64,000 nt of DNA from Chloroherpetonaceae bacterium. Its GTDB lineage: Bacteria; Bacteroidota; Chlorobiia; Chlorobiales; Thermochlorobacteraceae. Below are positions 7,299-57,306 of the stretch, in pieces. The position numbers and the translations under genes were made by a program. Location: NCBI GenBank assembly GCA_046719715.1, contig JBDNCJ010000005.1, positions 876 to 64,875 on the forward strand, read 5' to 3'. Under the pieces are notes generated by a model. That model saw only the letters and a list, made by a program, of their open reading frames with translations, was not told the DNA's origin and ran no database searches. The number at the start of each line of letters is the position of its first letter. Position 1 is the first letter of the stretch.

Positions 7299-9302
<2,004 letters not shown>

Positions 9303-51779: not shown

Positions 51780-51928
51780 AGCAGTGTCCTCCGTTGTGGT
51801 TAATGGTTGTAAAAAATTATTTCCATGATGAATATAAGGGCTTTTCAATACGTTCCGAAATTCTCTTCGGGCGCGCGAAGTCGCTATGGACGATTAACCA
51901 CGAACGATTTTCAGTCATCAGACGAGCA

Positions 51929-53320
51929 ATGAACCTTCTTGAACAAGAGCCGATTGCCGCCATTGCGACGGCGGCGGGCGAAAGTGCAATTTCCATCGTG
52001 CGCATGAGTGGCAAGGGTGTGCTGGAAATCGCTGATAAAGTCTTTCGCAAAGCGGGCGATAAAAATTTTTCATTCCTGAAAACGGATTCTCACACGGCGC
52101 ATTACGGACGACTCATTGATGCCAAAGGCGAGATGATTGACGAAGTCATGGCAATCGTCTACAAATCGCCGCGCTCTTTCACGATGGAAGATTCGGTTGA
52201 GTTCAACTGTCATGGCGGGGTGATTGTAACGCAGACTGTTCTCGAGACCTTGCTCGAGGCAGGCTGTCGCCTTGCTGAAGCGGGCGAATTTACGCGCCGT
52301 GCCTTTCTCAACGGGCGCATTGACTTAATTCAAGCCGAGGCGATTGGCGAAATGATTCATGCAAAAACGGCGGCGGCGTATCGCTCTGCGCTCTCGCACC
52401 TCAAAGGCGACTTGTCTAAAAAACTCGCCGCCCTGCGCGAAGACCTGCTCAACGCCTGCTCCATGCTCGAGCTCGAGCTCGATTTCGGCGAAGAAGACGT
52501 CGAGTTTCAAAGCCGAGACGACCTCAAAGCCAAAATGCGAAACCTAAACCAAACGCTCACAGAACTTGCCGATTCGTTTAAGTTTGGAAAACTCGTTCAA
52601 GAGGGTGTGCGAACTGCCATCGTCGGCAGACCTAACGCGGGCAAATCCACCTTGCTCAACGCCTTGCTCGGCAAAGAGCGCGCCATTGTCAGCGACATCG
52701 CCGGCACCACGCGCGATTACATCGAGGAAAGTTTCGTCATCGACGGCGTCTTGTTCAAACTCATCGACACGGCTGGACTGCGCGCAACGCACGACCAAAT
52801 CGAAGGCGAAGGCATTCGACGCAGTTACGAAAAAATCGAAGAAGCCGACTTAATTCTTTATCTCATCGATGCCTCAAAGCCCATAGACCCCGATGAACAA
52901 AGGGAGATTGAAGCGATGCGCAAAAAAAATGCAGAAGCAAAACTGTTGACCGTGTTGAATAAAGCGGATAAGGTTGAGAATGTAGAATTCAGGATTGAGA
53001 ATATAGAAGCATTGAAAATCTCTGCACTCACACGCGCAGGCATGGACGAATTGAAAACACGAATGAAATCGCTCGCACTTGGCACAGAAAAACTCTCAGA
53101 GGGAAGTATCATGCTCACCAACCTTCGCCACTACGAGGCGATTCGCAATGCACTGCAAAGTTTAGCGCAAGCCGAAGCACAAGTTGAACGGCACGCGCCG
53201 ACGGAACTCATCGCCTCCGACCTGCGCGACGCGCTCCATCACATCGGCACTATCACGGGCAAAGTTTCTACCGACGATATTCTCAACAACATTTTCGCCA
53301 AGTTCTGCATTGGAAAATGA
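51929..53320 (+). CDS. mnmE: tRNA modification GTPase MnmE
   Basis: IAAIATAAGESAISIVRMSG, the G-domain motifs GRPNAGKSTLLN and DTAGLR, and the C-terminus FCIGK. The ATG is at 51929; the track ORF starts at a TTG (51794). Confidence 0.93.
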   Translation: MNLLEQEPIAAIATAAGESAISIVRMSGKGVLEIADKVFRKAGDKNFSFLKTDSHTAHYGRLIDAKGEMIDEVMAIVYKSPRSFTMEDSVEFNCHGGVIVTQTVLETLLEAGCRLAEAGEFTRRAFLNGRIDLIQAEAIGEMIHAKTAAAYRSALSHLKGDLSKKLAALREDLLNACSMLELELDFGEEDVEFQSRDDLKAKMRNLNQTLTELADSFKFGKLVQEGVRTAIVGRPNAGKSTLLNALLGKERAIVSDIAGTTRDYIEESFVIDGVLFKLIDTAGLRATHDQIEGEGIRRSYEKIEEADLILYLIDASKPIDPDEQREIEAMRKKNAEAKLLTVLNKADKVENVEFRIENIEALKISALTRAGMDELKTRMKSLALGTEKLSEGSIMLTNLRHYEAIRNALQSLAQAEAQVERHAPTELIASDLRDALHHIGTITGKVSTDDILNNIFAKFCIGK

Positions 53321-53362
53321 GACGCGTTTGATTACCCAACTCCCAAAACAAACTTGAAACCA

Positions 53363-53746
53363 ATGAGTCGATTAACGGATAAAACAGACAGCGAGGCTCT
53401 TGACTTCAAAAGCAAAATCGCCGCCTTTGCGAACTTGTCTGATAATTGGGACGGACTCGGAACATCTGAGCCTTCTCAACTTGCAATTAGCAACGCGCTA
53501 TTCGTTCTCGAAGCACTTTTCAAAAATGAGACGCTTCCCGATTTTGTCAATGCAACAAGCGATGACAGCATCGTTGTTCAGCTTCAACGAGAAAACGGTT
53601 TTTACTTGTTTGAATGCTTCAACAACGGCGATATTGTTTTCTTGAAAAAGCAAAACGGCAAGCGAGATGTGGTCGATTTACAAAAGTGGGATATTCAAAA
53701 CGCGGTAGCTCAAATTTCTGCCAACAAAACCAATGCCTTGTTTTGA
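53363..53746 (+). CDS. hypothetical protein (NWDG-motif), first gene of an overlapping pair
   Basis: 127 aa from the ATG at 53363. The motif LSDNWDGLGTSEPSQLAISNA is of a type seen in small phage/TA-associated proteins, but I cannot name a family. Its stop overlaps the next ORF start by 14 nt. Confidence 0.45.
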   Translation: MSRLTDKTDSEALDFKSKIAAFANLSDNWDGLGTSEPSQLAISNALFVLEALFKNETLPDFVNATSDDSIVVQLQRENGFYLFECFNNGDIVFLKKQNGKRDVVDLQKWDIQNAVAQISANKTNALF

Positions 53747-54021
53747 CATTCCCGAAAGATTGCACGCAAACGGCAAATCGCTCGGTACACAATTTGCCGA
53801 CGATGAGAAACTCTTTCGCCGATTCGCGCAAACCGAACAGAATAAGCCCGCCATCATTAACGGCAAATTAACGCACGCCTCGTTCTCGCTTAAAGAAATG
53901 TCGGTCAATCGAGACAAAGTATTCAGAGCGTCCCGAAGACGTGCTTTACAACATTAAAACGGGAAATCACTTTTGGGATTGCGGCATTTACGCCTTTCGC
54001 GTCGGCGAGATTAAATCACTC
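53733..54021 (+). pseudogene. hypothetical gene, frameshifted and 3'-truncated
   Basis: Frame 1 reads MPCFDIPERL...KEMSVNRDK, followed by junk and a stop at 53957. Shifting frame at about 53917 gives a protein-like continuation YSERPEDVLYNIKTGNHFWDCGIYAFRVGEIKSL. That continuation runs into the antisense of the methylase remnant at 54022. Confidence 0.35.
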
Positions 54022-54300
54022 TCACACCTCATAGACCTTCATCACCTCATCGCCGAAGTGGTTAATCACCTTCACGGCGATTTTGCCTGACTTCGGTTTG
54101 TCAAACGGGACTGAAACCGTCGTGTAAAGTTGCGCCCATTTTTCTTCGCTCACCTCCGCCTTCAACGCCCGCTTGAGTTTTTTATACGGGTCGTTTGCGC
54201 CCGTGAAATACGCCTGCCGCACGAAAAAACTCTCGCCGTTGTAATTGGTTTCCTTTTTCAAGCGGAAGGCTGGCGCGCAGGTCGGCGCGAAGAATGTGGT
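54022..54300 (-). pseudogene. DNA methyltransferase remnant (C-terminal ~90 codons only)
   Basis: ...FRLKKETNYNGESFFVRQAYFTGANDPYKKLKRALKAEVSEEKWAQLYTTVSVPFDKPKSGKIAVKVINHFGDEVMKVYEV is the characteristic C-terminus of PF01555-type methylases paired with type III-like helicases. No catalytic or SAM-binding motifs are left. Confidence 0.55.
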
Positions 54301-54377
54301 CGCCGCCGATGTCTACAGTGGTCTCATGGTGTTCATGCTTATCAAAAGTTATTTTCAAAAAGTTACAATGATTGTAG

Positions 54378-54407
54378 GAAAGCGCGAATGAGATTTTTTG
54401 AGTCATA
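54378..54407. repeat. 30-bp imperfect direct repeat, left copy
   Basis: gaaagcgcgaatgagattttttgagtcata matches 55101..55130 at 28 of 30 positions. Confidence 0.7.
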
Positions 54408-54486
54408 AATTTTTCAATGCTTACGAAAGAGAATGAGTTTGTTAAATTCTTGTATCAAAATCGCAACAATTTAGACGACGCTAAAG

Positions 54487-54735
54487 ATGAAAACAATTGA
54501 GGTTACCGTAGAAAACGGCGTGATAACGCTTGCGCCGAATGTAGAACTGCCGAAACATTCACGATTAGCATTGCTCTTGCTTGAGTCGGGCGACGACATA
54601 TCCACACTCGATTTGACGAAACTCGCCGACGCAAACCCGTCATTTGATTTCTTGAAAGCCGAGCCTGACCTTTACAGCGAAGCCGATATAAAACCTGAAA
54701 ATCGCAACCCAAAATATCGTTCTCAACGCCCATGA
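54487..54735 (+). CDS. type II antitoxin (AF2212/DUF104-like N-terminus)
   Basis: MKTIEVTVENGVITLAPNVELPKHSRLALLL is DUF104-like. FDFLKAEPDLYSEADI is a tail common in MazF-partner antitoxins. Its stop overlaps the toxin start (ATGA). Confidence 0.7.
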   Translation: MKTIEVTVENGVITLAPNVELPKHSRLALLLLESGDDISTLDLTKLADANPSFDFLKAEPDLYSEADIKPENRNPKYRSQRP

Positions 54736-55073
54736 AGTTTAGTCGGGGCGATATTGTTGTTGCAGATTTTCCGTTCACGGCGATGACCGATTTCAAGAAA
54801 CGTCCGTGCGTTGTGCTTGCTCAAAGCGATACGCCCGATGATTACATCGTTGCGTTTATATCGTCATCATCGGACGCACGATCTTTGCCGTCGGCGGTGT
54901 CGGTATTACCCACGCACAAAGAATGGGACAAGACAGGCTTGCGCGCGGCGTGCGTGATACGACCGGATAAATTGATGACGCTGCACACATCGCTAATCGC
55001 CGGAAAAATCGGGAATTTGCCCGAAGACCGCATCGCCGAATTGAAAGAAAAACTTGCAGGCTTATTGCTGTGA
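54732..55073 (+). CDS. MazF/PemK-family type II toxin (endoribonuclease)
   Basis: FSRGDIVVADFPF....FKKRPCVVL......DYIVAFISSS............GL...CVIRPDKLMTL......GKIG.L is the PemK/MazF SH3-like fold signature. Confidence 0.85.
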   Translation: MKFSRGDIVVADFPFTAMTDFKKRPCVVLAQSDTPDDYIVAFISSSSDARSLPSAVSVLPTHKEWDKTGLRAACVIRPDKLMTLHTSLIAGKIGNLPEDRIAELKEKLAGLLL

Positions 55074-55085
55074 CTGCGCCGCTTT

Positions 55086-55573
55086 TCACATCGACGCAAC
55101 GAAAGCGCGAATGAGATTTATTGAATCATACACGTCGCGCAGTTCCAGAAACGCCCACTTGCAGAAGTTGCCCGCATTATTGACGGCGGGAATCCACAGG
55201 GTTTTGGCGGTTTCAACTTTTGCCTCTTTCGCCGCATCTTTTTTGCCGGTTACTTCCAGAATCACGTTCAGCACATCGCCCGATTGGGTTTTTATTTTTG
55301 CGCTTTTCGGCGGTAGCAGTGATGCGCTTCGTCGTTAATGACGATGATATTTTTCTGGCCTTTCAAACTTTTTCAGTCGAGCGTCCATTCCGTTTCAAAG
55401 GTGAGTTGATGTTTGTTGCGCGATTTGGCGCGCGCGATGGGCACAAAGTAGATGCTTTCGCGTCGCGATTCGATAATCTCATTTGAAATCCCCTCATGCT
55501 CGAACTTGAAGTGACGCGCGGGTTCGGCGAAGGGCGAATTGATAATCGGATTTTCGATAATTGCGTCGGGCAT
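55086..55573 (-). pseudogene. type III-like restriction enzyme / DEAH helicase (res) remnant
   Basis: The N-terminal 66 codons are MPDAIIENPIINSPFAEPARHFKF... An in-frame TGA follows (55373..55375). Next come 26 codons containing KNIIVINDEAHHCYR (DEAH box), then a TAA stop. After a frame change, the C-terminal segment reads ...GDVLNVILEVTGKKD...WIPAVNNAGNFCKWAFLEL... A full-length protein would be several hundred residues longer. Confidence 0.65.
55101..55130. repeat. 30-bp imperfect direct repeat, right copy
   Basis: gaaagcgcgaatgagatttattgaatcata lies inside the 3' end of the res remnant. Confidence 0.7.
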
Positions 55574-56098: not shown

Positions 56099-56686
56099 AT
56101 GAATCCAAAAAAAACCGATGACGAACTTATTGCGGAATTCAAGAGCGGCACAGCGGCACAAAAAGAAAAAGCCTTTGCCGAACTCTTACGCCGACACCGC
56201 GAGCCGATTTATTGGGTCTGCCGACGACTGCTCAACACCCATGAGGACGCCGACGATGTAACCCAAACCGTGTTCCTGAAAATTTTTCGGGCATTGCCAA
56301 ATTTTCAAGAAGAAGCGCAGTTTTCAACTTGGGCATACAGAATTGCAACCAACGAAAGTTTGAACTTCTTGCGTGCCAAAGCCGTCCGACATGCCGAGTC
56401 GCTTGATGCCTTGTCATCAGAAGCAAACACCGACATCAAAGCCGACAGCAGATTGCCCGACGAAGAACTCATGCGCGCCGAAGAGCGAAACGCCATCGAT
56501 GCGGCAATCGCCTCGCTTCCTGAAAAACAGCGTGCAGTCTTTGTGATGCGCTATTACGATGAACTGTCATATGAAGAAATTGCCAAAGCCCTTGGCGGCA
56601 CCGTCGGCGGCTTGAAAGCCAATTACTTTCACGCCTTCAAAAAAATAAGTGAGTATTTGAAACGAGCCTTGAAAAACGAACCATGA
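56099..56686 (+). CDS. ECF-type RNA polymerase sigma-70 factor
   Basis: Region 2 (DADDVTQTVFLKIFRAL, FSTWAYRIATN) and region 4 (LPEKQRAVFVMRYYDELSYEEIAKAL). Confidence 0.88.
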   Translation: MNPKKTDDELIAEFKSGTAAQKEKAFAELLRRHREPIYWVCRRLLNTHEDADDVTQTVFLKIFRALPNFQEEAQFSTWAYRIATNESLNFLRAKAVRHAESLDALSSEANTDIKADSRLPDEELMRAEERNAIDAAIASLPEKQRAVFVMRYYDELSYEEIAKALGGTVGGLKANYFHAFKKISEYLKRALKNEP

Positions 56687-57306
56687 CCTACGACGACTAC
56701 CGATACGAACTGCCCGATTTCATTTTGGGGAAGTCATCGCCCGATGTGGCGCACGCGATTGAGCGGCTGATTGAAACCGATAGCGCATTTCGCGCCGAGT
56801 ATCTTGAAATGAAAGCGCTCATAGAAGTGGCGACGCCGAGTTTGAACCGTGCCTTTGAGCACGCGCCCGATGCACCGACGCCTGCATACTTCGAAGCACT
56901 TTCCAAAAAAGTGCTTGCACGCGCCGTTCCGAAAAAAGCAACATGGTGGCAGACCTTCAAAACCGATATGGCGTCGCTCTTTGAAGCACCGCGTTGGCAG
57001 TGGGCGGGCGGATTAGTCGGCGCAACCCTTGCGCTCGTGCTTATCGTTTTCGCCTCTGAATTGGACGACGACGCGCGCCGAAAAATTCTCGCAAAAGGCG
57101 GCAAACCAAGCGAAAAACAGCCGGCGTTGCTCATTGCCACCAGCAATTTCGCGCTGGGAATAACGCCCGAACTCGTCGTTGCACAAATCGAGGCGCATGA
57201 AGCTGAAGAGGTATTGAACATCTTGGAAAACAAACTTCCAACAAGAAAACAAACTTACAAGGTGCTGACGGAAGAGGAAGCGGAATCGCTCTTCAAACCG
57301 ATGTAG
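56683..57306 (+). CDS. putative anti-sigma factor (single-pass membrane)
   Basis: Its start overlaps the sigma gene stop (ATGA). It has a central TM segment (WAGGLVGATLALVLIVFA). No zf-HC2 cysteines or histidines are obvious. Confidence 0.5.
   Translation: MTYDDYRYELPDFILGKSSPDVAHAIERLIETDSAFRAEYLEMKALIEVATPSLNRAFEHAPDAPTPAYFEALSKKVLARAVPKKATWWQTFKTDMASLFEAPRWQWAGGLVGATLALVLIVFASELDDDARRKILAKGGKPSEKQPALLIATSNFALGITPELVVAQIEAHEAEEVLNILENKLPTRKQTYKVLTEEEAESLFKPM

Follow-up and report, generated by a model that had tools for sequence, protein, structure and literature searches.

Two small overlapping reading frames lie directly behind mnmE at positions 53363 to 54021 of the window (the whole 64,000-nucleotide stretch of Chloroherpetonaceae DNA that was analysed), and they raise the question of what kind of genetic unit they once belonged to. 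A preliminary description had presented them as a two-gene module, a gene for an NWDG-motif protein with a frameshifted partner. Our comparisons revise both the number of genes and the status of the first. The unit is a three-gene operon whose first gene, a TIGR04255 protein in this lineage, has been deleted in the window, and the first reading frame (ORF1), rather than an intact gene, is an in-frame fusion of about nine codons of that first gene to the core of the second. Codon-level and blastn comparisons with the related loci L001 to L006 show that the window locus is a decayed copy of a horizontally scattered operon of the order first gene, B, C.

The intact form of this operon is found on the contigs L001 to L003, where three overlapping genes encode A (242-246 aa), B (158-161 aa) and C (163-165 aa). 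B is the homolog of ORF1 and carries its NWDG motif, C is the homolog of the second reading frame (ORF2), and A is a TIGR04255 protein. The L001 gene A is a clear member of TIGR04255 at 126.2 bits (cutoff 30) over positions 4-252 with E=1.9e-36, whereas the window keeps nine codons of A and ORF1 has no match. Intact homolog pairs, whose existence the preliminary description had raised as a possibility, are therefore present as conserved overlapping B and C genes in L001 to L003 and in further loci. The 14-nt overlap that it had reported between ORF1 and ORF2 (53733-53746) is likewise called in L001, L002 and L003, and overlaps of the genes are also called in L068-L076. The L002 trio is placed after the 3' end of mnmE, as ORF1 is in the window, and the operon lies directly behind mnmE in the window, L002 and L006. 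The public annotation of the Chloroherpetonaceae MAG carries the identical two products (P0001 and P0008). In the window the locus and its downstream flank read as follows:

51794..53320, plus strand: mnmE, the tRNA-modification GTPase, a conserved upstream neighbour
53363..53746, plus strand: ORF1, 127 aa from ATG, intact, annotated as hypothetical protein SNJ55_02380
53363..53389, plus strand: A-derived stub MSRLTDKTD, the first ~9 codons of gene A by codon-level comparison
53425..53743, plus strand: gene B core with NWDG at 53444-53455, placed by blastn to L002 1116-1734, alignments and the AlphaFold model
53733..53914, plus strand: gene C pseudogene, codons 1-61 in the original frame, overlapping ORF1 by 14 nt
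53915 (placement ±1 nt), plus strand: 1-nt insertion that shifts the gene C frame, from DNA alignment to L001 and L002
53916..54021, plus strand: gene C pseudogene, codons 62-96 in the +1 frame, ending at the deletion junction
54022..54261, minus strand: 3' stub of an N6_N4 DNA methylase, the last 79 codons of ~900 aa, matching the C-terminal residues of the L001 methylase
54252-54340, minus strand: 5' stub of a DUF2281 antitoxin
55083-55379 and 55373-55573, minus strand: Res/DUF4365 stubs

ORF1, which would extend to 130 aa from an alternative TTG start at 53354, carries LSDNWDGLGTSEPSQLAISNALFVLE with the NWDG motif and is matched by the B-family HMM at E=2.2e-37. Its homologs (n=4) are 56-62% identical at E=1e-31 to 1e-39; with these matches, and with those of the ORF2 frames to their own family HMM, chance reading frames were rejected. 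The stub MSRLTDKTD aligns with M(V)RLPDKIDD, the conserved beginning of the TIGR04255 protein (242-246 aa) in L001 and L002, after which codon-level comparison shows the reading frame resuming in gene B just upstream of the NWDG motif. ORF1 thus starts as gene A and continues as gene B and is therefore a deletion fusion that preserved the frame, without nearly all of A and without the first ~35 residues of B. The position of the junction is informative in structural terms. Intact B is a protein of ~160 aa with a disordered N-terminal tail and a folded core that bears the NWDG motif. The AlphaFold model of the intact protein P0002, built on a 9-sequence alignment, has a mean pLDDT of 74.9, with residues 1-34 below 50 and a core at residues 37-153 that adopts an alpha-alpha-beta5-alpha arrangement at mostly 85-92. 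It is this confidently modelled core that the predicted alpha-alpha-beta5-alpha core of ORF1 corresponds to, and since residues 1-34 are disordered in the model while the core is folded, a single in-frame deletion removed A plus only the disordered tail of B to create ORF1. The same kind of fusion, in which MRLPDKIDD runs directly into EKIW..., occurs in the relatives L004/L005 and L006. An HMM search found no second copy of A, B or C elsewhere in the window.

Damage to ORF2 goes further than the preliminary description had proposed. The frame begins at the ATG at 53733, reads MPCFDIPERL...SVNRDK, and then runs out of frame until a stop at 53957. The loss of frame placed earlier near 53917 traces to a single inserted base at ~53915 (GA[C]AAAG vs GA-AAAG), 2 nt from that estimate. 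In the +1 frame the sequence yields YSERPEDVLYNIKTGNHFWDCGIYAFRVGEIKSL, and the corrected 96-aa product aligns over its whole length with the intact 163-165-aa homologs at 73-77% identity; its database matches are intact proteins of that size at 72-76% identity and a 152-aa protein at 41%. The continuation beyond the shift is protein-like, as had been suspected, since both ORF2 frames match the family HMM (E=1.4e-16 and 9.2e-12), and it is indeed cut off by the methylase remnant, with homology ending at 54020/54021 and the methylase stub beginning at 54022. A frameshift is thus present, but a frameshift alone does not account for the damage, because the last 69 codons, including two invariant histidines, are also deleted. 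This second lesion is a 224-nt deletion that, relative to L001, comprises codons 97-165 and the 17-nt spacer up to the methylase stop. The remnant retains the LYRRF, SxNRxKYS and DVLYN motifs of the family and has lost both H114 and H123. A programmed frameshift was considered as an explanation and rejected. Codons 97-165 would be missing from C even if the insertion were an assembly error. Frameshifted and truncated, ORF2 is the dead copy it had been taken for. Its dN/dS against intact C (0.10-0.15) equals that of intact pairs, and inactivation was therefore recent relative to divergence.

The surroundings of the locus have decayed with it. The methylase that survives as a stub in the window is intact (895 aa) and convergent with gene C in L001, and is intact in the syntenic L006. 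Set against L006, the window has lost to deletion a PIN/DUF2281 pair, a 384-aa gene and DUF4365, together with the greater part of both the methylase and a ResIII helicase. Positions 54022-55573 can be regarded as the graveyard of a defence island that is intact in L006, produced by at least three separate deletions. Only one module of the island, at 54487-55073, has come through whole: an antitoxin-like gene of 82 aa and, overlapping it by 4 nt, a gene for a PemK/MazF toxin (PF02452, E=1e-15). Both genes are intact, and the pair has ~72% nucleotide identity to its counterpart in L006. Just downstream of the decayed island, at 56099-57306, an ECF-type sigma factor gene (195 aa) overlaps by 4 nt the gene for a 207-aa putative anti-sigma protein, a pair that looks ordinary.

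Gene C belongs to a sizeable family. At E<=1e-3, a profile search started from three C proteins recovered at least 1078 representatives, defined as clusters at 50% identity, and 521 of them remain at the stricter E<=1e-10; every one is a single-domain protein of ~150-180 aa. Three residues are invariant (S57, H114 and H123), R30, R60, D69, P116 and Y121 are among those that are nearly so, and the conserved residues sit in the motifs LYRRF, SxNRxKYS, DVLYN and HxPExCMYPHSEI. As judged from conservation, the invariant residues appear enzyme-like. The AlphaFold model of the C protein P0006 is compact and very confident (pLDDT 96.7, pTM 0.90). An alignment of 90 C members gave no credible match in Pfam, searches of C against Pfam, NCBIfam, PADLOC and PHROGs gave no match to a named, toxin, antitoxin or defence family, and Foldseek searches with the C model returned no relative from the PDB (best E 0.22, TM<=0.27) or from the viral structures of BFVD. 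An ART fold with an R-S-E or H-Y-E catalytic arrangement was considered for C and found no support: the matches to TNT (4qlp_B, TM 0.27, prob 0.08) and to a phage Tpt1-like protein (TM 0.25-0.32, prob 0.08) amount to noise, and no glutamate is invariant.

The B family gives a similar picture. Scans of ORF1, corrected ORF2 and the intact homologs of both against Pfam, NCBIfam, PADLOC and PHROGs came back empty, in agreement with the preliminary description, which could place neither protein in a named family. Foldseek searches of B against the PDB gave no fold match, the best values over the PDB searches with B and C together being E 0.15-0.22 and TM<=0.29; no match of C in BFVD was better than E=0.15 either, and PDB sequence searches with single proteins and profiles returned nothing meaningful. 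Matches of the B profile to PPR proteins were dismissed as repeat artefacts in which no stretch passed. The Bacteroidota version of the operon has in place of B a partner of 152 aa, B2, which bears the motif ...EDDELLLYR...GLxNIIIxxEDCIAFSFIP..., and no similarity between B and B2 is detectable (hhalign E=0.12). B2 was seen at L016, L018-L023, L025, L027-L029 and other Bacteroidota loci, and TIGR04255 is the first gene at all B2 loci that a contig end does not truncate.

Co-occurrence of homologs of ORF1 and ORF2, on which the idea of a functional pair depends, is well conserved. Scans of genomes, metagenomes and viral contigs added 60 C loci for a total of 64, and a B-type gene lies directly upstream on the same strand in 59 of them, with the other five cut by a contig end, such that a B-type partner is present at 59/59 assessable loci. 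These partners comprise 33 of the NWDG type (B) and 26 of the B2 type, the latter all at Bacteroidota-like loci. In the reverse direction, C was found directly downstream in 9/9 loci located via B outside the focal lineage. The C sequences fall into clusters that correspond exactly to the type of partner (23 with B2, 29 with B), and within the B cluster the types of first gene are intermixed. The B-C core is therefore an obligate, co-diversifying pair.

Loss of the operon has not affected its genes equally. C without a B-type partner was seen at none of the 59 assessable loci, while B persists without C in three related genomes (L004, L005 and L006). C is entirely lost from L006, and in L004/L005 everything from early C to the N-terminus of Res is gone; as both cases differ from the lesions in the window, C has been destroyed in three different ways in this lineage. 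The fused B is nevertheless intact in the window, L006 and L004/L005. Pairwise dN/dS of B falls at 0.10-0.31 for intact and fused genes alike, and between L006 and L004, which share the fusion junction and have no C, pN (0.069) is far below pS (0.254; Fisher p=3e-5), which places the orphan fused B under purifying selection. In L004/L005, a 42-nt remnant of the mnmE 3' end (7918-7958) lies upstream of the orphan B beside ddl rather than mnmE, and the B locus has therefore been moved by rearrangement together with a piece of mnmE.

Together, these observations lead us to favour, at somewhat below an even chance, a model in which C is an enzymatic effector and B its neutraliser, in the manner of a toxin-antitoxin system. 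C would be harmful or costly on its own, and B would be its cognate protein neutraliser, made just upstream through coupled translation as in type II antitoxin/toxin pairs. The interchangeable first gene would contribute a modular third component, whether trigger, sensor, regulator or second effector, and after loss of C the fused B would be retained as an orphan neutraliser. The model draws on gene order, overlap and sizes that resemble those of type II pairs, on the finding that C never occurs without a B-type partner while B persists without C, and on the non-homologous B2 having taken the place of B in one C clade; replacement by a non-homologous partner is known in toxin-antitoxin families. 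It draws further on the repeated destruction of C and not B, and on the retention in ORF1 of the structured core of B in full. The enzyme-like invariant residues and compact model of C, the physical linkage of the operon to restriction-modification genes in two unrelated lineages and the moron positions of TIGR04255 genes in temperate phages count in its favour as well. The co-occurrence and the pattern of decay fit the toxin-antitoxin-like pair proposed in the preliminary description, and it is from these comparative patterns that we infer the function itself. Purifying selection on the orphan B could, alternatively, reflect a function unrelated to C.

The resemblance to type II toxin-antitoxin systems can be made concrete with the MazEF/PemK pair that lies 740 nt downstream (54487-55073). 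Shared features are a small co-oriented gene pair in which the upstream stop overlaps the downstream start, an upstream product with a disordered region and a downstream product that looks like an enzyme, a location in a restriction-modification/toxin-antitoxin island, and an upstream gene that survives as an orphan. B and C differ from such systems in having no match among the families or folds of toxins and antitoxins, in the lack of a recognisable DNA-binding domain in B, and in the interchangeable third gene that normally precedes the pair.

This preceding gene is the most variable element of the operon, having been swapped among at least six unrelated families, one of which is HEPN. Profile comparison did not relate the first-gene families to one another, to B or to C, and the types are distributed as follows:

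TIGR04255-like: 34/59 loci with a B-type partner
Small protein of ~110-138 aa: 8 loci
DUF6941: L041 and L044
COMM-like, ~270 aa: L024, L045 and L050
DUF7380+DUF4209, 620-628 aa: L009, L038 and L068-L076
Unclassified: remaining loci

The profile of the small first-gene protein has no PDB sequence relative, and its identification as DUF3467 found no support (E=0.12 only). A literature search on TIGR04255, DUF6941 and DUF3467 found nothing relevant. DUF4209 is a predicted catalytically active HEPN RNase family that has been reported in restriction-modification-related operons (Anantharaman et al. 2013, PMC3710099). In Leptospiraceae (L073-L076, e.g. L073 1023-6947), an MmeI-like type IIG enzyme (1032 aa), a DUF7380-DUF4209 HEPN protein (628 aa), B and C follow one another with overlapping stops and starts, a gene string that suggests a restriction-modification-coupled four-gene system. 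This Leptospiraceae order of B and C behind DUF7380-DUF4209 (C6orf70/ERMARD-type) and a type IIG enzyme matches the remark on such operons in PMC3710099; the lineage of the window differs in using TIGR04255, and the B and C families are not described in the passages of the paper that were consulted.

The exchange of first genes, a HEPN RNase among them, agrees with a layout of conserved sensor plus variable effector at least as well as with our model. On such a reading, which we rate as rather unlikely, B-C would supply the fixed part of a defence-type system, its sensing or regulatory core, and the effector would be encoded by the exchangeable first gene, as the HEPN RNase in Leptospiraceae and as TIGR04255 or other proteins elsewhere; the system in the window would have died upon deletion of the effector A, with C decaying afterwards. 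The contrast between the first-gene families and a B-C unit that is inherited as one favours it, as does the presence of DUF4209 among the first genes. TIGR04255 itself also behaves as a separable part. Its genes occupy accessory (moron) positions in two temperate Pseudomonas phages, directly after cI in VW-6S (L078 3001-4644) and next to the portal gene in Dobby, a P2-like phage (L077 1114-2786), and in both a conserved ~199-aa protein unrelated to B or C (YYLTQE...LSNSCDI motif) is encoded downstream; A thus recombines with different partners as a module in its own right. The phage genes are alike to gene A of the intact operon in family (sporadTIGR04255 in NCBIfam; phrog_5464) and unlike it in partner.

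A link of B to defence is also provided by PADLOC. Distant B relatives (L007, L011 and L008) match positions ~258-355 of 375 in PDC-M32A with E=5e-7 to 2e-3, which is the C-terminal third of this component of the candidate system PDC-M32, which puts an NWDG-type domain within a candidate that was flagged for defence by computation. The resemblance is limited: ORF1, its close homologs such as P0002 and the C proteins have no match at E<=1, C matches no PADLOC model, which implies a different partner gene, and a full-length match to PDC-M32A with an adjacent PDC-M32B was not found. Weighing against a sensing core, such a role leaves unexplained why B alone is under purifying selection after loss of A and C, and why C rather than B was lost three separate times. 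Moreover, the TIGR04255 and small first-gene proteins have no recognisable effector domain, and general defence-island enrichment was not seen among 136 neighbours at 29 loci, a count made without a background control.

Our effector-neutraliser model leaves the contribution of the first gene broad, and the clean co-deletion of A and the tail of B suggests that A acts on this tail. This observation would be explained directly if the operon resembled toxin-antitoxin-chaperone (TAC) systems, with the first-gene product stabilising or controlling B through its disordered tail and the B of the window now independent of A. The tails of B are long and variable and contain short hydrophobic stretches, the one in-frame deletion took A together with exactly this segment (1-34, pLDDT<50) and spared the core, and the fused B was then maintained by selection. 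TAC systems likewise have a three-gene operon whose middle protein bears a disordered extension, and in the window the extension was lost together with the first gene. They differ, however, in their SecB-like protein, which the operon lacks, in an extension that is C-terminal rather than N-terminal as in B, and in that the first gene here is drawn from many unrelated families. No SecB match was found in any first-gene type, nor does any first-gene family have other chaperone homology, the small first-gene protein matches DUF3467 at E=0.12 only, and a 628-aa HEPN protein is unlikely to be a chaperone. We consider such a role for the first gene highly improbable.

Whether the operon takes part in genetic conflict at all, as our effector-neutraliser model supposes, can be asked of its genomic context. 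Among 136 flanking ORFs at 29 loci the commonest Pfam families are ordinary housekeeping or signalling families, with 2-3 proteins matching each restriction-modification or defence model, again without a background control. Tblastn searches of plasmid and phage collections with C and B gave no matches, and C was found on only one IMG/VR contig. With the lack of any match to a defence or toxin-antitoxin model, these results favour a non-conflict accessory module, regulatory, metabolic or stress-related, in which C would be a hydrolase-type enzyme and B its partner or chaperone, the restriction-modification adjacency would be fortuitous in a few lineages, and the operon would have been lost here as dispensable. 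We think this unlikely in view of the patchy phyletic spread of C, which extends over Bacteroidota, Chlorobiota, Leptospiraceae, Acidobacteriota, Nitrospinota and Rhodothermales, and in view of the modular swapping of the first gene, HEPN included. It also sits poorly with the location of the operon beside or inside restriction-modification systems in two unrelated lineages. In Leptospiraceae it is fused to the type IIG restriction enzyme through overlapping stop and start codons, and in the focal lineage a restriction-modification and toxin-antitoxin island surrounds it, and the two are decaying together. At one acidobacterial locus (L024 188-3454), an RHS/YD-repeat toxin-like protein (1088 aa) is encoded ~1.2 kb upstream of the COMM-like-B-C operon.

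A small overlapping module that resembles a toxin-antitoxin or defence system is of a familiar kind. In the libraries and literature that we searched, we found no description of these protein families, of the fold predicted for C or of an architecture in which a fixed pair follows a variable first gene. Rather more tentatively, and with real doubt, we propose that B-C with its interchangeable first gene constitutes a previously undescribed and widespread conflict system (toxin-antitoxin or anti-phage), in which C would be a Ser/His/His enzyme with a fold not represented in the PDB and B a neutraliser of a new class, able to remain behind as an orphan immunity gene.

In summary, the copy in the window is non-functional apart from the orphan B and is of little importance in itself. 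Its value is that it points to a sizeable C family that is without a model in Pfam, NCBIfam or PHROG, that lacks a structural relative despite a near-perfect predicted structure, and that is always accompanied by one of two partner types. The natural decay series, from intact trio to fused B with C to orphan B, offers a genetic argument about which component is dangerous and which protective, and this argument is directly testable. If C is an effector, it would represent a new enzyme fold and the operon a new conflict system of modular build, spread over Bacteroidota, Chlorobiota, Leptospira and other phyla.
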